Part shown: positions 12,901-33,092 of the stretch, in pieces
Numbering within the stretch: position 1 is the first letter of the stretch
Layout: each line of letters begins with the position of its first letter
From: Schmidtea polychroa
Lineage: Eukaryota
Assembly: GCA_044892525.1 (NCBI GenBank)
Contig: CM097888.1
Coordinates: forward strand, 46,252,001-46,316,000
Direction of reading: 5' to 3'
Length of the DNA stretch: 64,000 nucleotides
Made by a program: the position numbers and the translations under genes
Notes under the pieces: model-generated
What the model saw: the letters and a program-made list of their open reading frames with translations, nothing else
What the model was told of the DNA's origin: nothing
The model's database searches: none

Positions 12901-12918
12901 TGGGGGCTCAGCCGGGAT
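12901..12918 (+). promoter_or_regulatory. Primer-binding site, tRNA-Pro
   Basis: TGGGGGCTCAGCCGGGAT matches 16/18 of the classical tRNA-Pro PBS TGGGGGCTCGTCCGGGAT and follows ...CAACA-TAATTTT. Confidence 0.9.
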
Positions 12919-13216: not shown

Positions 13217-13702
13217 ATGACGGAATTCAATGATCAGATACAACAACTAATCAACTTCATAAACATCGAGAATGACTCCCTTAAAACGCTGACACAAAAG
13301 AGAGAAAGAATTAACATCATACTACTCCAAGCAATCGGGCAAACACCAGCCGTCCCCAACCACATGTTATTAGCCACAGGACTAAGTCACCCAGATGGGA
13401 AGGTAAACCCGGAAACCGTGTACCAATGGTATCAAGAGAGATTGAACCACCCAGCATTAAATCTTGATTATCAACGTATAAAAGATCCCTTAAATACCAT
13501 ATCAGATACAATCGAGCGGAAAATACAAGAAAAACTGACTCTACTACGAACTTGCCTTGCTTGTAAACTTCGTCCTATTCGCGTACTGTTTTTGCCGTGT
13601 GGACACCTCAGTCACTGCGAAGAATGCGGGAACGAGCTAACAAGATGCACGATATGTAAGCACGAGATAAAAGAAACTCATATGGTCTACTATGGTGAAT
13701 GA
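13217..13702 (+). CDS. RING-finger protein (IAP/MDM2-type C-terminal C3HC4 RING), putative E3 ligase, in the 5' leader
   Basis: CLACKLRPIRVLFLPCGHLSHCEECGNELTRCTICKHEI at the extreme C-terminus. No BIR motif seen. Confidence 0.85.
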   Translation: MTEFNDQIQQLINFINIENDSLKTLTQKRERINIILLQAIGQTPAVPNHMLLATGLSHPDGKVNPETVYQWYQERLNHPALNLDYQRIKDPLNTISDTIERKIQEKLTLLRTCLACKLRPIRVLFLPCGHLSHCEECGNELTRCTICKHEIKETHMVYYGE

Positions 13703-14338
13703 ATAGTGAAAGATACAGTAACATCTAGGAACATTGAATTTACACGGCTATTGAATGAGAATAAGTGTAATTGATGTGTGAAAATTGATTAAAGTTTTAA
13801 TTTTTATTTTTTATGGTGAATAAATTTTTGTTATGAACTGAGTAATTATGGCTTTTAATCCTATTTTATAATTGTTTTTTGAATCAAACGAAAAGAAAAC
13901 CGAACTAACGTGGAATTAGTCCCAATATAGGCTGTAAGGGTACAAACCGAGCCACCTTAGGGCGGTACGTTCTATCATACGATAAAACCAATTGGGAGGG
14001 GATAACCGATCAACCTAAGTGAGGAGCGTAGGGCGGGGTACCATCGCAAATGATGAGAAGTTTCTGCGGCATGACTGATCACCATGCCAATGTAGAAATG
14101 GATCATCGCGATCGTCGTGCGTTTTGAGCAAGGGGGGAAAGGGGACACACTCCCGTGCGGTAAAGATTAAGCCAACAAATTAAAAATAGACAGAGAAAAT
14201 GGTAATCTTGAGTAAAAGAAGAAAGAGAGAAGTAGAAGGATGCAGAGTAAAGAATGTTAAAGCCGAGCTGTAAAATAGTCCAGCCGGTCAAGGGAAACGA
14301 AAACTGAGCTGTGAAAAGTCCAGCCAGTTCGGAGATAT

Positions 14339-14637
14339 TAAGATCGAGTTGTTGAATAGTCCAACCGATCAGAAGGAGGAAGATTGAGCTGTTGAATAGT
14401 GCCAGCCAGTCGTAAGATCGAGTTGTTGAATAGTCCAACCGATCAGAAGGAGGAAGATTGAGCTGTTGAATAGTGCCAGCCAGTCGTAAGATCGAGTTGT
14501 TGAATAGTCCAACCGATCAGAAGGAGGAAGATTGAGCTGTTGAATAGTGCCAGCCAGTCGTAAGATCGAGTTGTTGAATAGTCCAACCGATCAGAAGGAA
14601 GAAGATTGAGCTGTTGAATAGTGCCAGCCAGTCGTAA
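14339..14637 (+). repeat. 4 x 74-bp tandem repeat (each unit two ~37-bp sub-repeats) in the leader
   Basis: Units start TAAGATCG at 14339, 14413, 14487 and 14561, with one substitution in unit 4. The core GAG(C/T)TGTTGAATAGT occurs twice per unit, and degenerate monomers lie at ~14265 and ~14305. Confidence 0.95.
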
Positions 14638-16008
14638 AGGCCTAGAAAAGCGAGAGATAGCAGTTAAGCTACAATGAGGTAATATTTAAATTACTAGTGA
14701 AATGGAATATTAAAGCTAGCTAGAACAAATAGAAGGTAATTACGAAAATTTGAGTTTAGAGAGGAAATAAACGAGCTCGTGGAAAAGATAATAAGATTAT
14801 AATGAAAAAGGAAAGGGAAGAAGGAAACGAATTAAAGAGATAATGGAAAATAAAGAATAGGCGAAACGATGATAATGAGTAAAGAGGAAAGTAACCAACT
14901 AATTAAAGGGACCCCAGTGAAGTAGAGAAACTCTACGGAATAATATTTTTCTTTTTTGGGCGAAGCGGGAGAATATATTTTATTGGTTCCAGAGTAGAAC
15001 CGAGTGAGATAATAGTAAATACGAAAAGTAAAACAGCGACAACCGCGCAAAAAGGACTAGGAAAACGAAAGGGGGGTAATAAGCAGTGACCGACAACGAC
15101 CTATTCCTATTATAAGTGATAAAAATAGATAATTATTACGACTCTATAGATAATTGTTACTACCCCATATAGATAATTTAAAATCGACGAAAATTTCGGG
15201 CTGATGGGAGATTATAACCCGCGGAAGTAATTGCATAAAAAATAGGGGAAGCATAAACAGAACCTAAAAGGTGTCTGTGTTTGAATGTTGCAGAAAGAAT
15301 GATGAAGTCGTGTAAGCAGATGCAACACGAGATCATTTTTTCATTTTAGATATCAAACCAATCCAGTCAACCAAGACAATCCAGAACCCGCACAAAAGGA
15401 ATTCGAAGAAATCGACAATCGACCAAGAATAAATCCATTCAGAACCCGCACCGAGAGACACAGCAACCGGAAGACTCCAGAACGGAAGAAGATACAGATA
15501 GCGACATCTCCAACTTCGAACGAATCATCGATATATTCAACCTCATAGTATTAGCAGCCATCTGTCAAGGACTAGTAAATCTCCTCAGAATCACAGTAGC
15601 AGATTCATACAGAATACTTATCGAAGGAAACACAATCAGAACTGAACTCGTCCAATTCAGTAGCCGCTAATTACCAAGAAGCGTAAGAAAGGAATCACGG
15701 ATAAACCCAATCTTAGATCTTCAAGTAAGCCAGGAGACGTATTATTTTCAGGAGACGAATTACAACAACTCAAAAGAGGACGATCTATTAAACATCAAAG
15801 AGGAATATCACAAGGATCAAGAAGAACCAATCAAGTACCTATATTTGACCAAGAAAATCTCGGATACACCCCTAGCCGATCTCGAAGCAGAGAAAGTCTG
15901 TCCGACATCACTAATAGTTTAGCAACGTCAACCGAGGAATTATCAGCCCAAAATTTAGTCACGTCACCGGATAATTTAAAAGAAACCGACGAATCTAGAA
16001 CACCAATC

Positions 16009-16914
16009 ATGACGAATGTCGTAAAAACCGACGAGTATAAAGAAAAGTTCCGAGGAGAACCGTTCAATGGAAATGCAAACAAGCTAGCAACGTTCATAAC
16101 TAATTTTGAAGTTTATATCACTGTGTGTGGATGGACACCCGAAGCAATTAGTAAAAGGATGCCGTTGTTTTTGTGCGATAGCGCATTAGAAGTATATTTA
16201 GAAGCTAAAGAGAGAGATACGAAATTAGAAAAGTGGGAAGATATCAAAACATTCCTGAAGAAAACCTTCGGAGCCAGTAAGCCAATCAACCAGGCGTTGG
16301 GCGAACTAGCAAATAGGAAACAAAGAGCAAATGAATCCATCACGTTATATGCCAGTGAATTGCGGAGATTGGCAAAGAAAGCAATGAATGGGAAATTACC
16401 AGAAGAAAATTTGATCGGTTATTTCATAGAGGGATTACGCCGAGAAGAAGTAAGAGCCTCAGTAGGTTGTCAAATGTGCAAAACATTAGAGGAAGCCATA
16501 GATTGGGCTACAAGATGCGAGCTCCACCTTCCAGCTCAAATGAATATTATGCAAGAGGAGGGAAGGATAATGACAGCAATAGCGAAAGCGGATAACGGAG
16601 ATAACAACAATCAAGAACCGAAAATGAATCAATTTATACCAGGAGCGCACCAAATTTTCAAACCACCACAAGGACGATCAAATGGGAATAATGGTAATCG
16701 TAACAACCCGAATAATGAGAACAATTTTAATAATCGACGAAATATGAACGATAACAAGCAGTGTCGAACATGCGGTAAACCAGGACACTGGGACAGAGAT
16801 TGCTATAGAAATTCAAATTGTAATCGTTGCGGACGGCGTGGACATACCGAAAATGTATGCCAATTGAGAGGTTGTTTTAACTGTGGTCAGCCAGGTCACA
16901 TCTCCAGAGATTGC
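16009..16914 (+). other. Gag domain: Ty3-type capsid plus three CCHC zinc knuckles
   Basis: FNG...FE.Y....W capsid pattern and the Q..NESI..YA.EL motif. CX2CX4HX4C at 16762, 16819 and 16873. Confidence 0.93.
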
Positions 16915-19900
16915 CGAGAAAGGGGCCAACAACAACGACCACCACAGCGAAATAATAATTATATGGCGAATCCGCAACGACAAAGTAACCCTAGCGAAGG
17001 AAAACAAATGAACGTTATGCAGGAAATCTCGCAGATGAAACAGATGATGCAACAAATGATGAGACCGAGACCGGAATCAGCACCACAACAAACCCAGAAT
17101 ATACGTATGATGAGGAGTACCGAAAATCTCAACAATTATGAAGTGCATCAACATGTACAAGAATGGCAAAGACTACAGGCCGAGGAAGAGAGGATAAAAC
17201 AAGAACGCAACCAACAACGACAAGAACAACCATTGCGAATTAATATGATGAAGTTAGTAAAAGACATGAAAAGCCAGTATTGCTACAATTACGGGAAAAA
17301 CCCAAGGGTAGTACCCATGACTGAACCAGAAAAGGTAACAGAAACAACAACGGAAATGAAAACAGAGAATTCAACCACGATTTTAAAAGGAAACCCGAGA
17401 ATTCAGAAAATATTCTGGAAAAAGATAAAAGATAAAATCGAAAAAGAACATAATAAAGCGAAAGCCGAGACAGAAGATGAAAATAACAAGAGCAAGGAAC
17501 AAACCAGTCAACTAAACCACCAAATGCTACAAGAATTAGAATCAGAAGAAACAACGATATTCGAAAGAAAGAAACTAAAGAGAGTACCAAGGATGAGAAA
17601 TTTGCAAATCAATATGATGAAAAGGACAAAAGATGTAGCATCGTCAGACGAAGAAGAAGACTATGTAAGTAGTTTGGGTGGAGAAATACTACAGCTAAAT
17701 GAAATAAGCGAACCTCCAAAAGGGGAAATCAAAGAGGAAGAAAGCGAAAGCGAGATAACAAGTGGAAGTGAAGACGAGGATATCGAAATAAAGTTGAGAA
17801 AAGCAAGGGAGGAAGCGATAAAACAGGTAGCCGAAATACTCCCGGCGGTAGTGAGAAACCAAGAGTTCATCGACGTAATACCATTCAGGCGATTCGTGCA
17901 AAAAGTGATGAAATTGGAAAGAAACGAGAAAGATTTAATACCAAACGAGGAAAAATCAATTATAAAAAAGTATATGGAAAAAATGAAGCAGGCCGATACC
18001 ACGCGGTATGTAATAAAAATCGGAACGAGCAGAGGACTTGAAAGAATGTGGATCAAAAGTACAGTCACCGACGAACTTTTCGATTGGATACGAGAACATT
18101 TGGGAAATTCGAGAAAGAAAGAATATCTGTATCAATACCAAGGAGAACAGATCAAACCAGATATGCACTTAGTAGATGCACTAATATGGCCAGGAGAAAC
18201 GCAAATACTGAAGTTGCATAAAGAAAAACAACCAGCCAACCTTTACGATTGGGCTAAAGATGCCAAGGCAGAATATGATTTTAATATCAAATTGAAATTA
18301 GAACAAATAAAACAATGTACTCTGAGACGAAACCTGGATAAGCTGATCAAACAAATTCAAGAACAAGTAGAAGACAACTGGGAATTACTCATCACCAGAC
18401 GAGCCCCAGCCATGTACGAACTAATGAGCCGATTGCGAGATACAGAAATGCTCCGGATGAGTGATTGGAGAACCATAAATTTGATCCACAAATATGGAAG
18501 GTTAAAAGAAACCCAGCCACAGAGGTTGGAAATAACCATATGGTTACCGAACGAAGAAAAACGACGAATAAAAATGAGCAATCGGAGTACAGTGGATGAC
18601 TTGGTATCAAAGATAAACCAAGAGATAACGGAAAAGGTACGTAGCGAAAGTAGTGATGGTATGGTGGATGATGTAGTCATGATGTACGATAAAATAATAT
18701 TACGAGCAGAAGACGACACCTCGTTAAGCGAATTGGGTATGTGGAACAATCATCAGATCATCAGGATAGTACCAATGGATGAATTTCGAACAAGAGATGT
18801 AATCTATCAAAAAGAAATACGAGACCGGATGAAAACGTTATATCAAAAATCTACAGAAATAATTGAAATCCACCAACAATGGTTAAAAGAAAAAGAACTA
18901 CAAGGAAAAATCACGAAATTAAGCACCAGATCCTGCAGACGAACCCCATGGGAAAGAGTGTGGAATGCAGAAAATAAGGAATGGGAAATCCGGAAAGGAA
19001 TCTTCGTAGAAACAGACATTGGTGAGACAGAAAGTGAATCGGAGGAAGAAGAAGAGGAACCTCCAGAATATGAAGAGGAAGCAAGGGGACAGACATCAGA
19101 TGACGAAAGCGAGACGGATGTCACATCAGAAAGCGAAAATGAAGCGAGACATATTCATGCAATGAGGAAAAAGGAACGTGAATATGCTGATATGGACGGC
19201 GAGGAAGCGACGGAAGCAAGAGAACGAGAAGAGAAAGAAAGATATAAACAATTAGGCGATATCTTAGCAATGGGAGCGAAAAATCAAAAACGCCAAGTAG
19301 TAGCGTTGGCTAACATCATCTTAAAGACATCAGAGAACATCCACAATCTGAGAGGAATGGCAAAGGCAATAGAGGAATACCGGCAATATAATGAATGGTA
19401 TCCAGAACAGCTAGAACAAATTATTCGAAAATGGAGAAATCAGGAATGGGCACAAGACACTCAGGAGAGGAATCACATCCGAATCAAGTATCCGGACAAG
19501 AGCATCGAGGAACTAGAGGTGCATCCAACAACAAAGATTAGAGAATTAAAAAAGAAATTAGCATATGAAACTCCATTCCATCTGCAACTGTTCGGAAAAT
19601 CACTAGACGATAATGCAGACGTCGGAATAACACCCATGAGATTGGAAGAGACAAATGTGTTAACAATGGCAGAAACGTTGGGAAAGCCGTTAAAAAGGAA
19701 AAGTAAAATTACTAAACCAACAAAAAGCAGTTTGAGTACTCCAAGTCCGAACAAAGCACCAAGTAAATCTAATGAAACTGAAGAAGTTGAAGAGATAATC
19801 CTGGAAGATAGTGACGATGAACCAGGAGAAAGATCACCGCTATTAGTAAGATGGCCGACAGGAGCCGAAATGTGGACTAATAACCAGCCATCAACGAGTT

Positions 19901-22900
19901 ATCAACAACCAACGAAACTAAACATCAAAGAAATCATCGACAACACTACGGAAACCGAAACGGATGAACAATTCCAGAAGCAAAGAGAACCAACGAAAGT
20001 AACACCAGAAGGTCAAACCGATAAAATAATAGATGAATGGAATGAGTGGCTAAGAAATAACGATAGCTCATTACCCAGAACGGATAACGAAAGAAATCCG
20101 AATTACGAAAATACCAGAGAAGCCGGAACGATGATGGAAAAACGGGCAAAAGGAAGACCTAAGAAACAAGGAGAAAAGTCTGAGTTCAAAACCAAAGAAC
20201 AATTAAAGCAAGAACAAGGGCAAGTTCGATTAGAAAAATTGGATAAAATAGTATGGGATCTAAAGGAAGCCCAACCAACGATCGAAAGAGGAGAAAAATG
20301 GATACGAGAATTGATCAAAGATATGTTAATAATAACAAACCCACAACTTAGACGTTTGTGGCAACGGAAAGTAGCCAGTACGGAAGCTAGACAATTATGG
20401 CACATCGTTTCGGGGATAATCCCAAAGTTAATCAAAGAGAAAACGAAAACCACCAAAACGGATTGGGATGAAACGAAGAGAGTGATTGCACAACTCACGA
20501 CAAATGCAAATGATGACGAACATCATCTAGTGGTAATCACGTATTTGATGTATAATTTGATGGGACTAGCTGCGAGGAAAATACCAAATAAACAGTTTGC
20601 AAATCATGTGGAAATGACCGTTTCAATCATAGAAAATACTATTGAACCACATATTATTCGTGCCGGAGGATGGAAAAGACTGATACAAGCGCCACGAAAA
20701 AATGAGCAAGAAAGGTCGATGCAAGTTAGATTGAAAAAACTGTTAAATGAACTAGAATGGGAACTACCGATGAAAGATCCCGCAAGCAGAAAAGCATCAA
20801 TAAATTCGTTAATGATGACTATGATGATATGGATGTTGTGCACAAGTGGAGCAACGGGTTTTACCATCTACGATTGTGATAATATGATAATGAGAGATAT
20901 ATACTCATTGAGAGACATAGAAGAATGCAGACAAGCATCACCCAACAAATTAGACATAGTAAGAACAAAAGTTACTTACCATGTATATCAGGAATCAGAT
21001 TTCATCAGAACGCAAGCAAGGGAATGCGTGGTATCAAAAAAGGTACTCGCATATTACTGTGGACAATATTCGTATTCGACTCTTATACTACCCGGCCTGG
21101 ACAAAGAAATCGTATCAATACAACGAGAGGACTGTAAAGAGCTATTTAGAACCGGAGCGTTAAAAATGCATAACGGAGTGACGATTCACGGACAAACTGG
21201 AATGATTAAAACCGAAAGTGTTTACGTATCCGGAAAAGTAAAATCATCAGATGGGTCATGTAACGGAGGTACGTATACGATCCGAGGCGAGGTAATATCG
21301 GGAGTAGTAGTGATCGAGTCTTATACGGTTGAATTAAAAGAATACGAAGCGCAATTTGACGCAAATAATTACCAAATGAAGACCAACCCAGCGTGTAGGG
21401 CTACAGAAAACGTATGCAGGACAGGAGTATCAACTATAATCTATGAAGCTAATACCCAAAAATGCCGACTCCAACTGTTAAAAAGTGCCTTGTTCAATGA
21501 AGTAAAAGGAGAAATATATGAGAACGAGAACGACGAGGATGGAAACGACAGGGTGAGAATGCGAAATGGAAAACCAATGCCACCATCTCCCAGAGAAAAG
21601 AGACTTTCAACGCAGAAGACACCAACAGCATTAATCACAGACGATCCAGATCTAGGTATGAGATTTATCAAAGAGAAAGAAACCACCAAATGTGACAGTA
21701 TAGTATATAAAACCAATTACGCAGGCATCTATATGTCGAGACAAATAATCGATAGAGCAGTGGGAAAGATAGCAACGGAGGACGTAAAACTATACTTATA
21801 TGCAAATAATAAAATGGATTTTCTATTTCATCGCGGACAAACGACCTTGCAAAAAGTATATTACGATCTGATACAAAACGATTGTTCATTGAATAAAGAA
21901 ATATTGAAAACAAAGCTAGCTATTGCGATAACGCACCCAGATAACACGATGCCATCACTCCCATTACCGGATGGACATTTTGGTAGAATGGTAGGAGAAG
22001 TAATGTACACATACCAGTGTACCAAGACGTATGCACGAATGCCAGAAAAATCTATACTACCCGAAAAGAGATGTGCAAATGAATTAGAAATCCGTTATAA
22101 AGGACAAAATCGATTCGTCCAACCAGTCACTAGAATTATGAATCCAGTGGGTTTCTACCCAAATCTCTTTAACTGTTCTAATGCATACGGACCTTTGTAT
22201 GAAAGGCCCGATGGGAAATGGATGATGTTACCGGGAAAAACCATATCCGAGGAGCCCAAGAAATTTGGATTAATAGAACTCGCCACAGAGCTGGATTTCA
22301 AACCTATAGACGTGTCAAACGGTGGTATGTATTCCCCAGAAGATCTAGAAACAGCACGACTTAACGTACTCTTCCCAGCCAGACGAGAATCCATTTTGTC
22401 AAATATGGTTACAATAACGGGGGGAACAAATTATCAATCAGGCCCGAATTACGAACTGCTACTATCGCCAGACCATTTTCAACAAGCCACGTCAAACATG
22501 ATGAAAGCAATGTGGGGAAGATTCTTAGTTTTTGGACAAATGATGGCCGGGATATTAGGGATCATACTCATAATTCAGATAGTCAGGGTAATATTAACAC
22601 AAATGTTAGCTTGTTTTGATATATACAAGCGGGAAAAGAAAGTAAATTGGAAAATGATAGTAGGCTTTCTACCATTTTTAGCAAAAACCATGGTATTACA
22701 TGGTCACTCAAAAGACATTCATCGGATAAAGCGATTGATTAAAATATTAACAAAGATTAAAGGAACCGACGAAGAAGTAGGCAGACGATTCCGGAAAGTA
22801 ATGTACGATGAAGCAACAAGACGACAATTGAAAAAGAATAAGCCAAAATTCTTGGACCGATTTAGAAGCCAATCATCTAACAGCGATAGTGACGACGATG

Positions 22901-25900
22901 ATAACGGGAACGACAAATGTCTATATCCAAACAGAAACCCAAACGAAAAACCAATGGAAACGGCACCATATTGGGAAAAGGAAAAGACAAATACCTGGAT
23001 CGCCAATGGAAGCTACATACCACCGGATATCGTGGGACCACAAGCAGCTTTGACCATGACACAAAATATGTATCCGCAATTACCAAGTCAACCCGGTATG
23101 CATTATATGCCAACACGACGTACCAAAAGTGTAGATCAAGCAGATGACGTAAGAACAATAGCAGCGATGAGTCTACCTGGAGGTCCAGCAGTAACAGTTA
23201 TGATTCGAATCAATGGTAAAGAAACCAATGCTATGATAGACACCGGAGTTAATGTATCAGCGATAGCGATTAATCAAATCCCCAGTAAACACTGGAAAGA
23301 TATCGAATCAACAACAATTCACATCATAGCATGTAGTAAAGAAACAGTGGACGTGGTCGGAAGATGGTGGACTACTTTGAGATACCAGGACAACGAAATT
23401 GAAACGTATTTGGCAGTAATACCAAAACTTAGCGTACCATGCATAATCGGAACGGATTTGATGCCAGAATTGTTAAAAGAAGTCGTAATTGACTTAACAA
23501 CCATGTGTTTAAAAGACAAAACCGGTAGAATATGCAAAATGAATGCAGTCATCAGATGTCCAGAAAAAATAATAGTACCAGCAAAATCGCAGATGATTTG
23601 TCAGATAAAAGTGGATACGGGTATGGAAGGAGAAGTTATCTTTGAACCAAGCAAGTCATTTGAAAAGCGACGAGAATTACCACTCGCAAGAGAAATAATC
23701 ACAATAAACCAAGAAGGAGTGATACCGCTCAACATCACGAATTTCGAAGAGGAAGACAAAATCATTTATGAGAACGAAAAATTGGGAAGATTGACCCCAA
23801 TGATGGACATAGAATTACCGAAAATGACCAACGAGATGAGCAAAGATGATGAATTATGGACAATAGATAGTATGTTGTTGACGAATGATGAAAAGAAAAA
23901 ATTGCACCGATTGTTGGTAGAATATAAAGATATATTCGCCATCTCAGATTTAGACTTGGGTACATGCGATGTTACCCTACATGCAATACCCCTCATAGAT
24001 GAAACTCCAATTGCATTAAGACCATACAAGCTAGCAGAAATGCAAAAAGAAATAGCCGAAGCAGAAGTACAAAAGATGCTGGACGCAAAAGTAATCGAAC
24101 CGAGTTGCTCACCCTGGCAATTCCCAGTGGTCATGGTAAAAAAGAAAGATGGCACCCAACGATTCTGTATCGATTATCGGAAGTTAAACGCAGTAACCAA
24201 GAGAGATACCTATCCATTGCCGGACATCAATGAGATGTTATTGATGTTGCAAGGGGCAGCATATTTTACTTCTTTAGATCTTAAAAGTGGATACTGGCAA
24301 ATTAAAGTCAAAGATGAGGACAAAGAGAAAACAGCTTTCACGTTGGGACGAGATCTATATCAATTCAGGAAAATGCCATTCGGACTAACCAACGCACCAG
24401 CATCATTTCAACGATGTATGAACTTTGTCACTCATGGAATCAAACAATGTATGGTATATATTGATGATTTACTAATCTATTCAGCGACATTTGAACAACA
24501 TCTGGAAGATATCCGAAACGTATTTATTAGATTAAGACAGTGGAAACTCAAACTCAAACCATCAAAATGCGATTGGGCAAAGGAAAAAGTCACGTTTTTG
24601 GGACACATAGTGTCAGCTAAAGGAAAGGAGCCAGATCCAAGAAACATTGAGAAAATAAAAACATGTCCAGCACCGAAAACTGTCACCCAAGTTCAGGAAT
24701 TTCTAGGATTATGCGGATACTATCGCAAATTTATCAAAAATTATGCAGGAATTGCAAAACCAATCCAGGAATTAGTAAAGAAGGACATTTCGTTCATTTG
24801 GGGGAAGGAACAACAAGAGGCGTTTGAAACGCTGAGAGATAAACTAATCGAAGCACCTATCCTCGTACACCCAGATTTTAAGAAGCCATTTCTATTGGCA
24901 ACGGATGCAAGCGGGTACGCGGCAGGCGCGATTCTGGGACAATTAGACGATGAAGGAAAAGAGAGAGTAATCGGGTATTACAGTCGAACATTCAAAAAGC
25001 ACGAAAAGAACTATTCGGTAACAGAACGAGAAGCATTGGCTATAATACAAGCTATCAAACACTTCCGATACTTACTATGGGGACATGAGATATGTATAAC
25101 CACAGATCATCAACCATTAGTGTGGTTATGGCAACATAAAGAAGCGTCCAGTAGACTGATGAGATGGGCCATGCAATTGCAAGAATACTCCCCATTTATA
25201 AAATTCAAAGCGGGAAGAGCAAATGCCAACGCCGATTGTATGTCAAGATTTATTTTTCCAGATTTGGTAGATTCAGAAATGCAAAGCATATGCTTAATAG
25301 TAGCGGAAGATTTGGATTTCTGTCAATTGCGAAAGGACCAACAAGAGGACGCGGAATTAAAACAAATTATCGATTATGTAAAAACCGGAAAGACAGATGT
25401 ATATGCGAAAGACCAAAAATTAAAAGAACATATGGATAAACACCAACACCGATATATTATAGAGAAAGATTGGTTGCTGATAATGGATGGGGAAAAACGA
25501 TTAATGTGTATACCGGAAAACCGACGAAAAGAGTTGTTAACGCAATATCACGATGGGAGATTGGGAGGACATATGTCATCGAAAAAGACGTTAGCAAGAA
25601 TGAAACAGAAATATTTTTGGCCTACGTTAACCGAAGACGTAACCGAATGGGTAAAAAATTGCCTAACTTGTGCGACCAGGAAAAATACTGGATCGAAATG
25701 GAAAGCACCTTTGACGCCAATGCCGGTACCAATAGAGCCGATGACGATGATATCCATGGACGTAGTTGGTCCACTACCAGAGTCAGATAAAGGAAATATT
25801 TACATTTTAGTGATTACCGACTTTCTCACGAAATTTCCAGAAGCATTCGCGATGCCAGACCAAAAAGCTAAAACAATCGCAAAAATTTTGGTAGAAGAGA

Positions 25901-28485
25901 TATGTTGCCGATATGGAACACCAAAACAGATATTAACCGATCAGGGAACTAATTTTATGAGTGAGATAATGAGCGAAGTAACGAACTATTTCAAAATCGC
26001 AAAATTGAGAACAGCACCGTATCATCCTCAAACCAATGGGATGACGGAAAGATTTAATGGAACACTTATACAAATGTTATCAAACTACGTCGACCGTCAC
26101 CAACGAGATTGGGACGAATATATAAACCTATGTCTTATGGCGTACAGAATGTCGATTCACGCATCAACGAAAATGAGCCCATTCAAATTAATGTACGGAA
26201 GAGAATGTAATATGCCAATGGACCTGGAATACCAACCACCGATATCGCAGTATATGGAGATCGATGATTATGTTACGAAATTCAAGGAAAGAATGCAAGA
26301 AATTTGGGAAACTGCGAAATTAAATATCAAGTTCTACCAGGAAAGTTATAAAGATTTACACGATCGAAAGAAAAACGTGAAGCAACATACGTTTCAAACA
26401 GGTGATTGGGTAATGATAGAAACCCCGGAATTAATTCCAGGAACCACAAAAAAGTTACAACGCAACGGAAAAGGACCATATGAGATCTTATTCGTAGGCG
26501 AAACCAATGTAAGAGTGAAATTGGTAAATAATCCATTCACCAGGCCAATATACGTAAACGTGGCACGATGTAAATCAATTCCAAAAACCGCCACCAGTCA
26601 ACCGGAAGGTCGAACATTAACCACACGTTCGCAAACCTACAAAATGAACATGATGCAACAACTCGCAGAACCGATCACTGGACGATTGGTCATACAACCA
26701 TCGGAAGCGGAAAAAATCGTACGAGAGGTAAAGACAAAATTACCCGGATGGGCAAAAGATCGATTAGATTTCGAAATATTAGGAGGATTATTGACGATGA
26801 TCGAAAACTATGCAAATAGAGAAAGGACACACCCATTATTGCGAGTAGTCAAAAGCCAATGGCCAATATTATTCACAATAACAGATCATTATGGAGACAC
26901 ACCATTACACAAACTCATGAAAGTAGGTAACAACGAGCAAATACTGGAAACAATAGAAGCATTTCACGACTGCAAGCGATCAACAGAACAAGAAAACAAC
27001 CAAGGTTACACACCATTAATGATAGCAGCAAACAGAGGCAAAACAAAAGACATCATAACCGCATTACTTGATACTGGATCAAAAATAACTACACAAGATC
27101 GCGAGCGGAAAAACGCACTACATCATGCTATCGAAGGGAAAAGTACCGAAGCGTTCACATCGTTGATGGAGTTACTATCATATGAGGACAATCAAGAAGT
27201 TGGAAACATGTATGATGGATTATTAACAGCGATCAAAGAGAAACTGACAACAATTACAGGAGTATTAATCACTTGGAGAAACCCAATTAGAAATAATTAT
27301 ATGATCAACGTAAACGAAGCATTCACGAAAGGGGAGAACACGCTTATGAGAGAAGCTATGAAAGGACATCATTTATTCGAAATCCCGAATCAATTGTTAG
27401 AACGAGGGATAACATTCACAAATCATAAGGATGAGCAGTTATTAAAAAAGCGAATAGACGCATTCGAAAAATCAATATTCCAATTTACTAACCAAGTACG
27501 GAATAAATATTGGGAAACGGTAAGTGTGTTATATATGATGGACACAATGAATAACATCCGCGAGAATTACCTGGATATTATCCAAATACTTACAGCAGAG
27601 GAACGAATCAATAATCCAAACGGAAAGAAAACGAAAATAAGGTATGGGAAATCAAGGGAACCAAAGTCGACAACGAACCAAACGGTCACAAACAACGTCA
27701 TCGAAACCAAATCAATGAGTATAGATCAAGAGGCAATAATACGCAAAGCAAAAGAAGTATTCTTCGAGGAAACGCTAGAGCTGTCAGACGAAATAATATT
27801 GTCAAAAATAATAAAAGCCGTACACACATACGCAAGAGATCAAACCACGGGTTTAGATATCGGGAAAATCAAAACCTTCTTGCCTCGAGCATTTACGATG
27901 GTGACGAAAGATTCAAGAACACCATTACAACAAGCAATACTAGCTGCAAAAGAGAATAGAGCAATAACGATCATAAGAATCCTTGGGGATATGGGCGAGG
28001 AAACCAACACGAAAAATGAACAAGGCGAAACCGCCATGATGTATGCAGCTATAACAAAAATACACCCAAAAACACTCCACATCCTACATCAATCAGGATC
28101 GAGACTAGACGAAAAATCAAACGAAGGGAACTCCACATTGGACTGGGCAACCATACAGCCAAACTTGGAAATGATCAGATTTATTTGCAAAAATGCGACA
28201 AAAGAAGAAGTTGAAAATATGTGCAAAAACACATCTCAATTTCAATGGAATACGGTACGGAAAAATCTAGAAGCAATGAAATTATTATTAACATGGAGGG
28301 TACCACAAAATAATAAATATGCGATAAACATAAACGAATTCTACGAAAACGGAGAAAACGCAATGGTAAAGAATACATTAACTAAAGGGGGGACACCAAA
28401 AATTATTTTAATAGTATTAAACAGAGAAGACCTCAAAATCAGAACGAGTTACAACGAGTTGGAAAACATCGTCGTATTCAATTGA
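16009..28485 (+). CDS. 4158-aa Gag-accessory-Env-Pol-ankyrin polyprotein
   Basis: Single uninterrupted ORF; domain motifs are listed in the sub-features. Confidence 0.97.
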   Translation: MTNVVKTDEYKEKFRGEPFNGNANKLATFITNFEVYITVCGWTPEAISKRMPLFLCDSALEVYLEAKERDTKLEKWEDIKTFLKKTFGASKPINQALGELANRKQRANESITLYASELRRLAKKAMNGKLPEENLIGYFIEGLRREEVRASVGCQMCKTLEEAIDWATRCELHLPAQMNIMQEEGRIMTAIAKADNGDNNNQEPKMNQFIPGAHQIFKPPQGRSNGNNGNRNNPNNENNFNNRRNMNDNKQCRTCGKPGHWDRDCYRNSNCNRCGRRGHTENVCQLRGCFNCGQPGHISRDCRERGQQQRPPQRNNNYMANPQRQSNPSEGKQMNVMQEISQMKQMMQQMMRPRPESAPQQTQNIRMMRSTENLNNYEVHQHVQEWQRLQAEEERIKQERNQQRQEQPLRINMMKLVKDMKSQYCYNYGKNPRVVPMTEPEKVTETTTEMKTENSTTILKGNPRIQKIFWKKIKDKIEKEHNKAKAETEDENNKSKEQTSQLNHQMLQELESEETTIFERKKLKRVPRMRNLQINMMKRTKDVASSDEEEDYVSSLGGEILQLNEISEPPKGEIKEEESESEITSGSEDEDIEIKLRKAREEAIKQVAEILPAVVRNQEFIDVIPFRRFVQKVMKLERNEKDLIPNEEKSIIKKYMEKMKQADTTRYVIKIGTSRGLERMWIKSTVTDELFDWIREHLGNSRKKEYLYQYQGEQIKPDMHLVDALIWPGETQILKLHKEKQPANLYDWAKDAKAEYDFNIKLKLEQIKQCTLRRNLDKLIKQIQEQVEDNWELLITRRAPAMYELMSRLRDTEMLRMSDWRTINLIHKYGRLKETQPQRLEITIWLPNEEKRRIKMSNRSTVDDLVSKINQEITEKVRSESSDGMVDDVVMMYDKIILRAEDDTSLSELGMWNNHQIIRIVPMDEFRTRDVIYQKEIRDRMKTLYQKSTEIIEIHQQWLKEKELQGKITKLSTRSCRRTPWERVWNAENKEWEIRKGIFVETDIGETESESEEEEEEPPEYEEEARGQTSDDESETDVTSESENEARHIHAMRKKEREYADMDGEEATEAREREEKERYKQLGDILAMGAKNQKRQVVALANIILKTSENIHNLRGMAKAIEEYRQYNEWYPEQLEQIIRKWRNQEWAQDTQERNHIRIKYPDKSIEELEVHPTTKIRELKKKLAYETPFHLQLFGKSLDDNADVGITPMRLEETNVLTMAETLGKPLKRKSKITKPTKSSLSTPSPNKAPSKSNETEEVEEIILEDSDDEPGERSPLLVRWPTGAEMWTNNQPSTSYQQPTKLNIKEIIDNTTETETDEQFQKQREPTKVTPEGQTDKIIDEWNEWLRNNDSSLPRTDNERNPNYENTREAGTMMEKRAKGRPKKQGEKSEFKTKEQLKQEQGQVRLEKLDKIVWDLKEAQPTIERGEKWIRELIKDMLIITNPQLRRLWQRKVASTEARQLWHIVSGIIPKLIKEKTKTTKTDWDETKRVIAQLTTNANDDEHHLVVITYLMYNLMGLAARKIPNKQFANHVEMTVSIIENTIEPHIIRAGGWKRLIQAPRKNEQERSMQVRLKKLLNELEWELPMKDPASRKASINSLMMTMMIWMLCTSGATGFTIYDCDNMIMRDIYSLRDIEECRQASPNKLDIVRTKVTYHVYQESDFIRTQARECVVSKKVLAYYCGQYSYSTLILPGLDKEIVSIQREDCKELFRTGALKMHNGVTIHGQTGMIKTESVYVSGKVKSSDGSCNGGTYTIRGEVISGVVVIESYTVELKEYEAQFDANNYQMKTNPACRATENVCRTGVSTIIYEANTQKCRLQLLKSALFNEVKGEIYENENDEDGNDRVRMRNGKPMPPSPREKRLSTQKTPTALITDDPDLGMRFIKEKETTKCDSIVYKTNYAGIYMSRQIIDRAVGKIATEDVKLYLYANNKMDFLFHRGQTTLQKVYYDLIQNDCSLNKEILKTKLAIAITHPDNTMPSLPLPDGHFGRMVGEVMYTYQCTKTYARMPEKSILPEKRCANELEIRYKGQNRFVQPVTRIMNPVGFYPNLFNCSNAYGPLYERPDGKWMMLPGKTISEEPKKFGLIELATELDFKPIDVSNGGMYSPEDLETARLNVLFPARRESILSNMVTITGGTNYQSGPNYELLLSPDHFQQATSNMMKAMWGRFLVFGQMMAGILGIILIIQIVRVILTQMLACFDIYKREKKVNWKMIVGFLPFLAKTMVLHGHSKDIHRIKRLIKILTKIKGTDEEVGRRFRKVMYDEATRRQLKKNKPKFLDRFRSQSSNSDSDDDDNGNDKCLYPNRNPNEKPMETAPYWEKEKTNTWIANGSYIPPDIVGPQAALTMTQNMYPQLPSQPGMHYMPTRRTKSVDQADDVRTIAAMSLPGGPAVTVMIRINGKETNAMIDTGVNVSAIAINQIPSKHWKDIESTTIHIIACSKETVDVVGRWWTTLRYQDNEIETYLAVIPKLSVPCIIGTDLMPELLKEVVIDLTTMCLKDKTGRICKMNAVIRCPEKIIVPAKSQMICQIKVDTGMEGEVIFEPSKSFEKRRELPLAREIITINQEGVIPLNITNFEEEDKIIYENEKLGRLTPMMDIELPKMTNEMSKDDELWTIDSMLLTNDEKKKLHRLLVEYKDIFAISDLDLGTCDVTLHAIPLIDETPIALRPYKLAEMQKEIAEAEVQKMLDAKVIEPSCSPWQFPVVMVKKKDGTQRFCIDYRKLNAVTKRDTYPLPDINEMLLMLQGAAYFTSLDLKSGYWQIKVKDEDKEKTAFTLGRDLYQFRKMPFGLTNAPASFQRCMNFVTHGIKQCMVYIDDLLIYSATFEQHLEDIRNVFIRLRQWKLKLKPSKCDWAKEKVTFLGHIVSAKGKEPDPRNIEKIKTCPAPKTVTQVQEFLGLCGYYRKFIKNYAGIAKPIQELVKKDISFIWGKEQQEAFETLRDKLIEAPILVHPDFKKPFLLATDASGYAAGAILGQLDDEGKERVIGYYSRTFKKHEKNYSVTEREALAIIQAIKHFRYLLWGHEICITTDHQPLVWLWQHKEASSRLMRWAMQLQEYSPFIKFKAGRANANADCMSRFIFPDLVDSEMQSICLIVAEDLDFCQLRKDQQEDAELKQIIDYVKTGKTDVYAKDQKLKEHMDKHQHRYIIEKDWLLIMDGEKRLMCIPENRRKELLTQYHDGRLGGHMSSKKTLARMKQKYFWPTLTEDVTEWVKNCLTCATRKNTGSKWKAPLTPMPVPIEPMTMISMDVVGPLPESDKGNIYILVITDFLTKFPEAFAMPDQKAKTIAKILVEEICCRYGTPKQILTDQGTNFMSEIMSEVTNYFKIAKLRTAPYHPQTNGMTERFNGTLIQMLSNYVDRHQRDWDEYINLCLMAYRMSIHASTKMSPFKLMYGRECNMPMDLEYQPPISQYMEIDDYVTKFKERMQEIWETAKLNIKFYQESYKDLHDRKKNVKQHTFQTGDWVMIETPELIPGTTKKLQRNGKGPYEILFVGETNVRVKLVNNPFTRPIYVNVARCKSIPKTATSQPEGRTLTTRSQTYKMNMMQQLAEPITGRLVIQPSEAEKIVREVKTKLPGWAKDRLDFEILGGLLTMIENYANRERTHPLLRVVKSQWPILFTITDHYGDTPLHKLMKVGNNEQILETIEAFHDCKRSTEQENNQGYTPLMIAANRGKTKDIITALLDTGSKITTQDRERKNALHHAIEGKSTEAFTSLMELLSYEDNQEVGNMYDGLLTAIKEKLTTITGVLITWRNPIRNNYMINVNEAFTKGENTLMREAMKGHHLFEIPNQLLERGITFTNHKDEQLLKKRIDAFEKSIFQFTNQVRNKYWETVSVLYMMDTMNNIRENYLDIIQILTAEERINNPNGKKTKIRYGKSREPKSTTNQTVTNNVIETKSMSIDQEAIIRKAKEVFFEETLELSDEIILSKIIKAVHTYARDQTTGLDIGKIKTFLPRAFTMVTKDSRTPLQQAILAAKENRAITIIRILGDMGEETNTKNEQGETAMMYAAITKIHPKTLHILHQSGSRLDEKSNEGNSTLDWATIQPNLEMIRFICKNATKEEVENMCKNTSQFQWNTVRKNLEAMKLLLTWRVPQNNKYAININEFYENGENAMVKNTLTKGGTPKIILIVLNREDLKIRTSYNELENIVVFN
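17998..19668 (+). other. Region with up to three ubiquitin-like (beta-grasp) domains (~17998-18216, 18523-18771, 19474-19668)
   Basis: HIRIKYPDKSIEELEVHPTTKIRELKKKL...LQLFGKSLDD and LEITIWLPNEEKRRIKMSNRSTVDDLVSKI...MMYDKIIL..DDTSLSELGM follow the ubiquitin pattern I.V...tI..LK..I...L.F.GK.L.D..tL...GI. The first copy is weaker. Confidence 0.6.
20290..20688 (+). other. Bcl-2-like helical domain (putative)
   Basis: TIEPHIIRAGGWKRL matches BH2 (W/HI...GGW). DEHHLVVITYL sits at the BH1 position with Bcl-2-like spacing to GGW, but NWGR is not conserved. Confidence 0.55.
20797..22704 (+). other. Envelope glycoprotein, chuvirus-G-like (putative class III fusogen), in frame between gag and protease
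   Basis: Internal signal sequence (..MMIWMLCTSGATG|F). Motifs recalled from chuvirus-type G: YDC..YSL.DIEEC, EC......YYCG, NNKMDF..C, GEVMYTYQC, GGMYSPEDL..LFPARR, WGRFLVFG..AGILGI(TM). Furin-type REKR at 21592-21603. Confidence 0.8.
23170..23538 (+). other. Retroviral-type aspartic protease
   Basis: AMIDTGVNVS (DTG at 23239) and IIGTDL flap/helix motif. Confidence 0.93.
23930..25260 (+). other. Reverse transcriptase and RNase H (Ty3/gypsy type)
   Basis: RT motifs SPW, RFCIDYRKLN, LDLKSGYWQI, MPFGLTNAPASFQR and YIDD (24457). RNase H motifs TDAS, YSVTEREALA and TDHQPL. Confidence 0.98.
25300..26580 (+). other. Integrase (HHCC, D-D35-E, GPY/F)
   Basis: HDGRLGGH..CLTC; D at 25759, D at 25939, E at 26047 (35-residue spacing); KKL...GKGPYEI. 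Confidence 0.97.
26656..28482 (+). other. Ankyrin-repeat region, two ~340-aa duplicated units
   Basis: GDTPLH, GYTPLMIAA, KNALHHAI, RTPLQQAI, GETAMMYAA and GNSTLDWA. LITWRNPIRNNYMINVNE..GEN and LLTWRVPQNNKYAININE..GEN lie 1020 nt apart. Confidence 0.88.
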
Positions 28486-28518: not shown

Positions 28519-28839
28519 ATGCTGCAACGGGTAGAAGAGTTTGAATTCGAAGCAAAATTAGCAAGAAACAGAGTGCTAACAGCATATCGCAGATTATTGA
28601 ACGATATAAATGTCGAGGACGACATTTTAAACGACAGCGGGGAAATAAACACGATGACAATGACGGAAATGGCCGAAAAGAGGATAAAGGGAAAAGAGAA
28701 CCGGAAGAGGATAAACCGGAAAACAAGGATTTGGATACGAAAAGAGAGGGAAACAGCCCGGGAACCAAGACCAAAGAGGAGGAAAAACCGAATAATGGAA
28801 AACAGAGGGTATGCCTACCTTTCACTAACAAAGAAATAG
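28519..28839 (+). CDS. Copy of the 106-aa basic protein
   Basis: Identical to 2338..2658 (+26181). Confidence 0.45.
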   Translation: MLQRVEEFEFEAKLARNRVLTAYRRLLNDINVEDDILNDSGEINTMTMTEMAEKRIKGKENRKRINRKTRIWIRKERETAREPRPKRRKNRIMENRGYAYLSLTKK

Positions 28840-28847
28840 AGACAAAT

Positions 28848-29849
28848 ATGATATTAATGATAATCATGCTCACCATGATAGAGTTAGTAACAGCTCATGG
28901 AGGGACGAGAACGATAAAAGAAACCAAAGAAGCGGAGAATCAAGACAGCAAAGAGGATGAGCTAAAACAAGAAAAGAAAAAGCAAGCACAAGAGCAGCAG
29001 TGGGAATTAAAGGAGGAATGGGACTTAAAGGAAAGGTGCATACTAGGAAGATGCATGTCTAGAGCGTATCAGAAACTAGTACTGATAAATGAGGACACAG
29101 AACCAATAACAGAAGTAAGAATACAAGAAGCATACCGAAATCGATACGGGAAGAGAATAACGAACGTTAAAGGAAAAGAGGTACACCTAGGAAAAGGTGG
29201 TGAAGTAGTAATAACGCAACTCCAACCTAGAAAAGAGCACAAAGTCTGTATTTCAAGATTAGGACCAGGTGAGAAATGCCATCAATACGTGACGCAGCAG
29301 CAGCCGCCGAAAGAATACACGGTTTGTATCTGGAGGAACGAATCAAAAAGGGAATGTCGACGATACCCGGGGAAAAGAGGAAAGAAAAGAAAAAACAACG
29401 ACGAAAAGGACGAAGGCGGAAAGCACAAGAAAACCGGTGAGGAAGCTCAGGACAACTATGTTTCGGAGGAAGAGATGGAAAAAATACAAAAGATGGCAAA
29501 GGAGGGTATGAACGAGGAAATAGCAAGAATACGAGAGATGATGAAAGGAAATGGCAAAAGAAGGAACGAGAAAAGTACAGAAGCAATAGTAACATTAACA
29601 AACAAGGAGAAACCAGAAAATATAAGCGTGAGGCAGATGATGTGGATTAGTGGGATAATAATAACAGGAGCCTTCCTAATCATAACGGGGGGAACAATAA
29701 AAATAATTAAAGATAAACGACATCGCGGAGAACTAGAGATGACCCGAATCAGAAATTTCCAACATCGAGTGAAACGACCAAGTGATACCAAACAAGAACA
29801 GTGGGTGGAGGCCTGGAACGCTCAGCGCCCTCCAAACTCACGTATATAG
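28848..29849 (+). CDS. Copy of the type I membrane protein
   Basis: Identical to 2667..3668. Confidence 0.75.
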   Translation: MILMIIMLTMIELVTAHGGTRTIKETKEAENQDSKEDELKQEKKKQAQEQQWELKEEWDLKERCILGRCMSRAYQKLVLINEDTEPITEVRIQEAYRNRYGKRITNVKGKEVHLGKGGEVVITQLQPRKEHKVCISRLGPGEKCHQYVTQQQPPKEYTVCIWRNESKRECRRYPGKRGKKRKNNDEKDEGGKHKKTGEEAQDNYVSEEEMEKIQKMAKEGMNEEIARIREMMKGNGKRRNEKSTEAIVTLTNKEKPENISVRQMMWISGIIITGAFLIITGGTIKIIKDKRHRGELEMTRIRNFQHRVKRPSDTKQEQWVEAWNAQRPPNSRI

Positions 29850-30369: not shown

Positions 30370-30454
30370 ACCAAACCTAGCTTAAAATGTAAATAATTGT
30401 AAATAAAATATCGAACCTGTATCGATAAGGACTATATGTACATATAATTATAGA

Positions 30455-31843
30455 ATGGATAAACGACAAAGAGAAGAGTTCAGAGAGATTGTCGAGCAAA
30501 TACGAAAATCTACAACGATCAGAATACACAAACATGTTATGTGCGGAATATGTGAAAAGTTGTTAAAGGAACCTCACCAAACTCAATGTGGATGCAGAGT
30601 ATGTAAGGAATGTATCAGTGAAGCAATAAAGAATAGACCACAGCGGTGCCCGGTGTGTAAAGAGACACTAATATCGAGTTTAGAAGACACTAACGAGGAT
30701 AAAGCCGCAGTGAAAGATATGTTAAACACCAACCTGGGATGCAAAAATGCCCCATGCGAATGGAAAGGAGTAATCTGGAAGGTAGTACAACATATGGGAG
30801 AATGTATGTACAGAATTGGCCAGTGTGAAAGGTGCCATAAAACCATTCGAGCAAGCGAAGAAAAAGAGCATCAAAGGCAGTGTGAAGAGAGATTGGAAAG
30901 ATGTGAACATTGTGGAGAAATAGACACGTGGAAAAATCTCACCCTCAAACATCACAATGTCCAAGAGGAGAAAGTATGTGCAGAATTCAGTGGGGAATGC
31001 CCAAACGGATGTAACCAAGGGGAAATAATGAAAGTGGCACAGCATCTAAGGGAATGTGAAAGGAAAAGAATGACATGTGTACTAGGTAAATGGGGTTGTC
31101 AGAAACTACTACACCGAGGGGAGTTACCACATCATTTAGTAGAAAATGCTTCAACCCACGCAGAAATGTGGTCGACTGCGTTACAAGAAAGCGAAGAGAA
31201 AATAAAACAAATGGAGATAGAGATAACATCGTTGAAAGTGTTAGTCAAAGAACTACTAGAAGAAAGGGAAGCGTTCGAAGAAGCCCGAGCAAACATAAAG
31301 ATGCAAATAAACCGAATAGAAATCAGTAATAATCAGGCCAAGGAGCTACATCAGAAAATACGGGAAATAAATCTAAATGAAGTAATACCAACAGCACCCT
31401 ACATATGGAAAATAACGGGAGTAAAAGAAAGAATACGAAAAGCAAAAACCGGAGAAGAGACAAGAATAACAAGTCCTGCATTCCATTCTTGGAAAAATGG
31501 GTACAAAATGAAAATGAAGATATATCCCAACGGGGACGGAACCGGATTAGATACGCACTTTTCGATTTTCTTTCTGTTATGTAAAGGGGAATACGACGAA
31601 ATAATAGAGTGGCCGTTCCAGGCAAAAATCGATATTGCACTAATGAATGACCGAAGCATCCACGAACAAAGCTTCAAGACAACTGGAAACCAAATGTGTT
31701 ACCAGAGACCTACGGAAGAAGAAGGATCAGCAACAGGAGCACCTACGTTCATCCTACAACAAAAAGTAGAAGATATGGCAAGAAATGACACGGTGTATAT
31801 CAAGATGACCGTGAGGAAAGAGGAGAAGGGTAGAACGGAGTAA
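30455..31843 (+). CDS. Copy of the TRAF-family protein
   Basis: Identical to 4274..5662. Confidence 0.95.
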   Translation: MDKRQREEFREIVEQIRKSTTIRIHKHVMCGICEKLLKEPHQTQCGCRVCKECISEAIKNRPQRCPVCKETLISSLEDTNEDKAAVKDMLNTNLGCKNAPCEWKGVIWKVVQHMGECMYRIGQCERCHKTIRASEEKEHQRQCEERLERCEHCGEIDTWKNLTLKHHNVQEEKVCAEFSGECPNGCNQGEIMKVAQHLRECERKRMTCVLGKWGCQKLLHRGELPHHLVENASTHAEMWSTALQESEEKIKQMEIEITSLKVLVKELLEEREAFEEARANIKMQINRIEISNNQAKELHQKIREINLNEVIPTAPYIWKITGVKERIRKAKTGEETRITSPAFHSWKNGYKMKMKIYPNGDGTGLDTHFSIFFLLCKGEYDEIIEWPFQAKIDIALMNDRSIHEQSFKTTGNQMCYQRPTEEEGSATGAPTFILQQKVEDMARNDTVYIKMTVRKEEKGRTE

Positions 31844-32036
31844 CCAATCGAATAATGTTGTACATAATAATCTGTATATATCGGTGTATATAACCAATAA
31901 AATATTATATAATAATAGTATGAAAACCCTAAATACGAAAACCCAAAAATGATGCGAAAATTCCCAAAGAAACAGTAGATAATGAATAAATTACTTTTTC
32001 ATAATAAAAAGATTAATCGATGTCTATGATTTAGAG

Positions 32037-33092
32037 ATGACACAAGAGAAACTAACCGAAACAGCGATAGCCCCAACCAATGTCAACAAGACACAAATTC
32101 CCCGAGAACATAACAAAAAATGGAACAAAGTAATGTCCCAACTAACTAATCTCACCCGAAATCACATCGAAGAAGCTAGAGAGGATGAGAATAGTCAATA
32201 CCAATGGTTAATACACAACTTAAGAGCGGAAGCAGATGCATGCAAAAGAGCATCAAAATGGGCGTCACTAGAAAATACCCGCCAAGAAGCACACAGCCAC
32301 TACTTAAAGCAGCTAGTGCAGGAAGCGAGAAAGAGACTTACCGATGAGAACACCAAGCGCGAAGCGGAAAAACAAATAGAAGAAAGGAAAATGATGCACT
32401 TAGTGGCAGAAGCGAGAAAATGGAAAAGACAAAGCAATGAAATGAAAAAAGAGATGAAAGAATTGCCCATGAGACTCGGATATGAGAGCGAACAGGGCAA
32501 ATGGGAGGAGAACTTAATAATAAAGGAAGAATTGAAACGGTTGAGAAAGGTCGCCGCCCGAAGTCAAACCTGGCAAACAAAGGCTATGGAATTTGAGCGA
32601 CATTTGGCAATAAAATGCGACATAAGAGAGCACGAGAATGCCGCAATGGAAGAGATGATAACCCAACAAGCAGGACGGATTGTGGAATTAGTAAATCAGG
32701 TCGAAGAGATGAAAAGAGACCTTAATGGATTACAAGGATCGTTAGAACAAAGAAACATGGTCCTAGCGGGAAAAAACAGAAAATTAGAAAACGAGAGGAA
32801 AATGTATACCGAAAATATCAAAAACTTGGAAATAGAAATTGAAAAATGGAAGGGCGACGAGAAAATCAAGGCCTTAGATAGACAAGTAGAGGCGAAAGAC
32901 GAAGAGACAAGGTATCTCACTTATCTGCTCGACGAAGAGCTGAATAACACTCGAGCTCTAAGAGACGAAGTTAGTGAATTGAGAGCTCAAATCCCCCAAT
33001 ATTACCTACCCTATGACCCTATTGCGATACAGCTGCATCCAGCGGTCGATAGTGACGAAGGTTATGTGGGACAGGAGGAAACCTTCGTATAA
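32037..33092 (+). CDS. Copy of the 351-aa coiled-coil protein
   Basis: Identical to 5856..6911. Confidence 0.75.
   Translation: MTQEKLTETAIAPTNVNKTQIPREHNKKWNKVMSQLTNLTRNHIEEAREDENSQYQWLIHNLRAEADACKRASKWASLENTRQEAHSHYLKQLVQEARKRLTDENTKREAEKQIEERKMMHLVAEARKWKRQSNEMKKEMKELPMRLGYESEQGKWEENLIIKEELKRLRKVAARSQTWQTKAMEFERHLAIKCDIREHENAAMEEMITQQAGRIVELVNQVEEMKRDLNGLQGSLEQRNMVLAGKNRKLENERKMYTENIKNLEIEIEKWKGDEKIKALDRQVEAKDEETRYLTYLLDEELNNTRALRDEVSELRAQIPQYYLPYDPIAIQLHPAVDSDEGYVGQEETFV

Follow-up and report, generated by a model that had tools for sequence, protein, structure and literature searches.

The stretch of DNA analysed here (the window; 64,000 nucleotides of the Schmidtea polychroa assembly GCA_044892525.1, contig CM097888.1, positions 46,252,001 to 46,316,000) carries a 30.4-kb Ty3/gypsy long terminal repeat (LTR) retroelement with an envelope (Env) segment inside its gag-pol reading frame. 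Features are numbered from the first base of the window and lie on the forward strand unless stated otherwise. The polyprotein frame (16009-28485; 4,158 amino acids (aa) from its ATG) is open throughout and, as a sequence-only reading of this DNA had proposed, env sits in frame between Gag and protease with neither stop nor frameshift. Pfam searches returned the domain order Gag, CCHC, weak Bcl-2, PF24664, PR (protease), RT (reverse transcriptase), RH (RNase H), IN (integrase) and ankyrins. The Gag capsid and three CCHC knuckles (16162-16917, aa 52-303; Retrotrans_gag at aa 52-145, E 1e-10; zf-CCHC, E 5e-10) are followed by a weak ubiquitin-like domain (19480-19740; Pfam ubiquitin, E 0.012, below cut-off) and the BH1-BH2 part of a weak Bcl-2-like domain (20521-20673, aa 1505-1555; Pfam Bcl-2, E 0.087). 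The interval 20797-23247 corresponds to aa 1597-2413, and the parts listed for it by that reading, i.e. signal peptide, Cys-rich ectodomain, REKR in an acidic and Pro-rich loop, transmembrane (TM) helix, tail and DTG protease, are all present in the sequence. The aspartic protease (23197-23472, aa 2397-2488; Pfam RVP, E 2e-8) has its DTG at 23239-23247 (aa 2411-2413), and Ty3/gypsy-type RT, RNase H and integrase matched by Pfam (24136-26028) and ankyrin repeats (26932-28182; Pfam Ank_2, E 4e-17) follow. The gypsy context likewise held up, with Ty3 RT as the best PDB match (E 9e-90) and the order PR-RT-RH-IN; a BEL/Pao structure may be absent from the PDB, yet Pfam found no match in the window polyprotein to DUF5641, which we take to be a BEL/Pao marker.

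The arrangement recurs outside this copy. A genome search, in which 131 of 2,213 candidates were scored (92-100% identity), gave at least 131 copies. The stop-to-stop frame has 4,732 codons in 59 of the 131 scored copies and at least 4,200 codons in 73, and in the window copy, where it ends earlier, near 28.5 kb, it has 4,273. Two more families of the same genome encode polyproteins in one frame in the order Gag-(Bcl-2-like)-signal-Env-TM-tail-PR, and 12 of 15 long metagenome relatives scanned show env then protease in frame; in five of these 15, a Gag/CCHC match was present upstream of env as well. Fusion of env with gag and pol by chance or misassembly was considered and is ruled out by the many copies, the two further families and the in-frame relatives. 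In case of the cargo domains, the ubiquitin match reaches E 4e-4 in the genome's second family, and two further ubiquitin-like candidates upstream of 19480 in the window frame were left unconfirmed. Pfam Bcl-2 scores E 0.006 in the second family and E 0.001 in relative P0006, both below cut-off; a PDB profile search with the Bcl-2-like region returned only Bcl-2-family chains among the best 60 of 107 matches (best E 0.011), and an ESM Atlas search on the Bcl-2-like and ubiquitin-like cargo gave no usable match. No Pfam or PDB match to a dUTPase-like domain was found in the PR-RT spacer, though this spacer is kept in three families, and the ORFs scanned (window ORFs and Pfam scans of relatives) contained no match to a BIR domain. 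In several relatives (P0001-P0005, P0009 and P0016), env is followed by aspartic-protease domains in tandem, two or three in number. Relative P0007 (HBK71150.1), an env-PR-RT-IN polyprotein, is filed as a Flavobacteriaceae metagenome-assembled genome protein and is likely animal DNA in a bacterial bin, while in relative P0146 immunoglobulin domains are fused ahead of the PF24664 glycoprotein.

The ectodomain (20860-22509, aa 1618-2167) matches PF24664 (Monjiviricetes_fusion) at E 8e-70, in line with the chuvirus-like class III glycoprotein named in the sequence-only reading, and its 14 cysteines fall mostly within near-invariant columns of a 124-row alignment. A full HMMER search of 1.84 billion representatives with env gave 1,016 matches, of which the best 150 were listed, whereas a word-indexed search at near length passed none of 6,373 candidates. 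A single-sequence PDB search with env had no match; with a 133-row env profile, the leading matches were 34 chains of herpesvirus gB, with a best E of 0.002. An AlphaFold2 model of the ectodomain built from 124 rows (pLDDT 87, pTM 0.66) was compared with 48,161 chains. The five top matches are gB and the sixth is rabies G, with helical rows next at Z ~6; HSV-1 gB matches at Z 9.9 with an rmsd of 7.7 Å over 421 aligned residues, and Atlas clusters reach 0.95-0.96 in the class III fold comparison. Relative to the window, env dN/dS is 0.01-0.02 in the ten best-scoring copies, values biased low by how these copies were chosen, and 0.03-0.05 in six copies taken from the most diverged of those scored, where dS is 0.4-1.4. 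From the fold match and the low dN/dS we conclude that env is being maintained as a class III-type protein. It is predicted to be a fusogen of the gB/chuvirus type with putative membrane-fusion activity.

Ahead of the ectodomain lie a candidate protease site (aa 1598-1601), an internal signal h-region (aa 1601-1611) and a predicted signal-peptidase site after G1617 (together 20800-20859). The h-region is uncharged, and the site after G1617 is of the small-residue kind. An uncharged h-region just before the conserved mature start was present in 16 of 16 polyproteins for which the upstream part was available, compared with one of 38 Pol windows, and small -3/-1 residues at the predicted cut were judged by eye in 15 of the 16. 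Stand-alone homologues have a true N-terminal signal at the same position as the internal h-region of the polyproteins. At the other end, a predicted TM helix (22540-22608, about aa 2178-2200; Kyte-Doolittle (KD) peak 2.5-2.9) follows a conserved membrane-proximal stretch and is itself followed by a basic KREKK. A second conserved hydrophobic segment (22642-22698, aa 2212-2230), which the sequence-only reading did not mention, has a poor insertion score and contains Pro and Lys/Arg; it probably lies along the membrane surface as a helix and does not span the bilayer.

The Env tail spans ~197 aa from the end of the TM helix to the start of the protease domain (aa 2397) and contains a YPxL late-domain-like motif (23068-23082, aa 2354-2358). 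YPxL was noticed first, and standard late-domain patterns were then tested. YPx[LI] occurs in 8 of 15 polyprotein tails compared with 0.68 expected by shuffling, and in stand-alone tails YPx[LI] was found in 41 of 96 (2.2 shuffled) and P[TS]AP in 22 of 96 (1.2 shuffled). YPxL and PTAP motifs act in the cytosol, and the enrichment thus fits a cytosolic tail. A single literature search for late domains in such glycoproteins, made in an incomplete collection, turned up nothing. Further, a second protein with predicted signal peptide and TM helix lies downstream of Pol (28545-29849), in a separate frame in this copy, whereas in one other copy inspected it belongs to the polyprotein frame. Such a protein ends the polyprotein in two families (window; locus L055; locus L051, 3598-4800 on the reverse strand), and the post-Pol membrane proteins of the two families show no detectable homology (E 0.5) and no Pfam match. 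That of the second family has a PPxY motif in its tail, as seen by eye. For a signal 3' of Pol to work, Pol must be cytosolic. Together, the h-region, TM helix, tail motifs and second signal favour a cytosol-lumen-cytosol-lumen-cytosol path, and this agrees with the earlier proposal of cytosolic Gag, lumenal Env and a Pol tethered to the Env tail until cleavage.

Seven of 16 relatives have a BH2-like G[GS]W 20-48 residues ahead of the signal helix. Host Bcl-2 proteins carry their tail anchor at about this place, and the signal helix may thus take the position of such an anchor; the Bcl-2 profile matches agree but are weak. A short motif found at PR borders and other domain ends also adjoins the signal (9 matches compared with 2.5 shuffled, none in the ectodomain), its pattern having been defined after inspection.

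The furin-type REKR motif (21592-21603, aa 1862-1865) lies in an acidic and Pro-rich loop that is unstructured in the model, and 15 of 16 copies within the window element's family retain it. In the aligned loop, R-x-[KR]-R is present in one of 18 polyprotein envelopes (the window's own), in none of the 17 others shown and in none of 97 stand-alone rows, where two of the 18 polyprotein rows have short loops and the stand-alone loop alignment is uncertain. Furin cleavage as a family-wide step was rejected on these counts. A single R-x-[KR]-R motif is weak evidence by itself, and furin cleavage would be at most family-specific and not needed family-wide.

We also built a tree of 121 rows, after dropping 12 short rows of 133. 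The 17 polyprotein envelopes and three fragments form one clade (SH-like 0.995). With regard to nesting within Chuviridae, stand-alone homologues are at 21-30% identity and mostly unnamed, and the polyprotein envelopes keep to their own clade. The single clade argues against a capture unique to the window element, and the same layout occurs in the two other families of this genome, so that the independent capture suggested earlier is not supported; the event is left undated because rows were picked by likeness to the query.

Taken together, we consider it likely that this is a Burro-type giant Ty3/gypsy element with a conserved env between Gag and protease, whose polyprotein is threaded through the endoplasmic reticulum membrane as in flavi- and alphaviruses. 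Gag and cargo domains would be made in the cytosol. The internal h-region would then insert N-in/C-out and signal peptidase would cut after aa 1617; the leftover helix may anchor the Bcl-2-like domain like a host tail anchor or may be freed by the element's protease at the adjoining site. The ectodomain would fold in the lumen and the TM helix would stop transfer; tail and Pol would then be cytosolic and stay attached until cleavage by the protease immediately ahead of PR. The YPxL of the tail could recruit ALIX and the endosomal sorting complexes required for transport (ESCRT) for budding, and the second signal-plus-TM cassette after Pol would cross the membrane again. Several points weigh against this proposal. 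The ectodomain has one N-glycosylation sequon only, and its match to gB comes with an rmsd of 7.7 Å and a pTM of 0.66 for a monomer model. The conserved segment at aa 2212-2230 could be a TM helix, which would turn Pol lumenal. The signal and TM calls come from hydrophobicity scales, the protease-site pattern is post hoc, G[GS]W precedes the signal in 7 of 16 relatives only, and the Bcl-2 matches are sub-threshold in all families searched, though at the same place in several. A 1:1:1 ratio of Gag, Env and Pol is unusual for retroelements, and that one frame implies it hints at splicing or other regulation.

This last point leads to an alternative that we regard as unlikely, in which most Env or Env-Pol is translated from an RNA that is spliced or subgenomic, or starts at an internal Met a short way upstream, with an N-terminal signal and the full polyprotein as a minor product. 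It would solve the stoichiometry, Drosophila errantivirus env is spliced, and in the window family a start at the Met that lies ~30 residues ahead of the predicted cut would yield an ordinary signal peptide. However, the 45 residues that precede the mature start of P0002 include no Met, the second family has a Met there only within the h-region, and three families and many relatives keep the frame open through both junctions. Contigs from the read data X1, X6, X2 and X7 contain no joint skipping env. In X1, the AT-rich flank is covered too, in 30 of 30 bins, so that it probably holds DNA, and the contigs are not taken as evidence on splicing.

Improbable, in our view, is a variant in which Env is made as described and no infectious particle results, the protein acting instead in cell-cell fusion, intracellular budding or receptor interference. 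Purifying selection shows that env has a function but not its kind, no particle study of Burro was found in the literature searched, and in the available passages of PMC6431247 a provirus is offered only as a hypothesis. Against this, late-domain-like motifs are shared with stand-alone viral-type homologues, and env is kept in a young family with LTR pairs 99.9-100% identical. We give very little credence to a C-terminal two-helix hairpin. In that case the segment at aa 2212-2230 would span the membrane, tail and Pol made by this route would end up on the lumenal side, and functional Pol would have to be supplied by chains that escape insertion. This segment is kept across polyprotein and stand-alone homologues, and gB-type ectodomains flanked by two TM domains are described for some elements (available passages of PMC13524379). 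Its composition and poor score, the KREKK behind the first TM helix, the YPxL/PTAP motifs with their cytosolic action and the second signal, which needs a cytosolic N-side, all argue for the single-span threading we prefer. Going further, and only tentatively, Burro-type elements could be live invertebrate retroviruses with capsid, envelope and enzymes in one four-crossing membrane polyprotein, where one helix would serve both as Env signal and as viral Bcl-2 anchor and the ESCRT late domain would reside in the Env tail rather than in Gag, as in stand-alone chuvirus-type glycoproteins. The element is a clean case for asking how enveloped particles can arise from a retroelement with a single reading frame. 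It is young, present in many copies and strongly selected, and its host is a planarian, for which good laboratory tools exist. The late-domain motif of the tail, the helix shared between Env signal and Bcl-2 anchor and the membrane cassette after Pol are predictions specific enough to be tested.

The unit containing the polyprotein runs from the 5' LTR (8721-12893; 4,173 bp, TG...CA), which also belongs to the tandem unit before it, to the 3' LTR (34902-39074), which doubles as the start of a third unit ending at 43319. The two LTRs are identical (0 mismatches), and their outer ends, 8721 and 39074, set the unit length at 30,354 bp. Boundaries were set from four other genomic copies with LTRs of 3.9-4.2 kb, TG...CA ends, LTR pair identity of 99.9-100% and a 4-bp target site duplication in four of four. 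A primer binding site (PBS) for tRNA-Pro (12901-12918) starts 7 nt 3' of the LTR. It agrees at 14-15 of 15 bases with the 3' ends of seven genes in the tRNA-Pro(CGG) array of this genome, of which ARAGORN calls six Pro. This array, at locus L062, is a tandem alternation of tRNA-Pro(CGG) and tRNA-Arg(CCT) genes with a period of ~440 bp. Between PBS and Gag, the leader contains 74-bp tandem repeats (14265-14711) and an upstream accessory ORF with a C-terminal RING finger (13160-13702; Pfam zf-C3HC4_3, E 4e-11). Downstream of Pol, a TRAF-like accessory ORF (30407-31843; Pfam TRAF-mep_MATH, E 3e-26; zf-C3HC4, E 1e-4) is a full TRAF-like cargo of RING, Cys-rich middle, coiled coil and MATH. Two charged coiled-coil-like ORFs ahead of the 3' LTR (31986-33967) and a 261-codon ORF within the LTR (11543-12328) had no Pfam match above cut-off.

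The window from 1 to 43319, together with the upstream loci L041 and L042, forms a tandem LTR-internal-LTR-internal-LTR array with a period of 26,181 bp. Its repeat units are identical over 17,138 bp inside the window and over 10 kb upstream, and the third unit breaks off at 43319 without an LTR. The array could instead be an assembly duplication, but two other copy pairs are ~26.2 kb apart and arrays may therefore be real. At loci L043-L046, the env protein is 99% identical, yet the likeness of their LTRs to the window LTR is limited to the first ~390 bp, which suggests recombination among subfamilies.

Flavivirus and alphavirus structural polyproteins use internal signals, signal peptidase together with a viral protease, and alternating topology. 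The likeness to the element would be one of working, by inference only and without homology; their fusogens are class II and their signals lie ~100-300 aa into the chain, compared with 1,600 in the window polyprotein. In relative P0061, the PF24664 glycoprotein lies in frame behind a DUF5641 domain. Anakin elements belong to an about 8-kb class of element. According to the available passages of PMC7642597, their envelope is of the same family, PF24664, and they differ from the window element in being BEL/Pao rather than gypsy and in carrying env after pol.

The closest known systems are planarian. Burro/GYPSM1 elements are giant gypsy-like LTR retrotransposons described in 2019 with an in-frame env between Gag and Pol (available passages of PMC6431247), and BURRO1 RNA is reported in planarian tissue upon SMEDWI-2 loss (available passages of PMC8532177). 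As described in PMC6431247, they share with the window element a length above 30 kb with LTRs, Gag with three CCHC, an env in frame between the BCL2-like region and PR with mononegavirus glycoprotein matches, PR-RT-RH-IN, ankyrins and MATH/TRAF cargo; their ubiquitin-like and BCL2-like domains have counterparts in the window as matches below cut-off. The Burro ORF measures ~4,700-5,100 aa, compared with 4,158 aa in the window and the 4,732-codon frame in 59 of 131 scored copies. In the window, MATH sits outside the polyprotein in the downstream TRAF-like ORF, the ORFs scanned gave no BIR match and the dUTPase-like spacer no search match; Burro env was linked to gypsy Env by HHpred (PMC6431247), whereas the window env is class III/gB-like. 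The Burro assignment was made by layout and description. The available passages of PMC13524379 describe 'ancient errantiviruses' with HSV/gB-type ENV in GAG-ENV-POL order in Nematoda, Bryozoa and Platyhelminthes, not monophyletic in POL and nearest to the present case in Smed_errantivirus_5 and _6, which share gene order, gB-type fold and a furin site that is not always conserved with the window element. The window env is ~55% identical over domains I-II to Smed_errantivirus_5 (102/187, counted by eye), Smed_errantivirus_2 and the second family of this genome look nearly the same by eye, and the window family is not, by eye, among the six Schmidtea elements listed there. In the passages concerned, neither fusion in frame nor topology is discussed, and late domains and a second membrane protein are likewise not taken up (PMC13524379). 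The layout, taken as new in the sequence-only reading, was thus already in print for Burro (PMC6431247) and for GAG-ENV-POL gB-type gypsy elements (PMC13524379) and is therefore not a discovery. The window element is a new member of this known Burro/GAG-ENV-POL group, and what is added here is the candidate YPxL late-domain motif of the tail, the predicted signal helix at the place of a Bcl-2 anchor and the predicted second signal-plus-TM protein after Pol.

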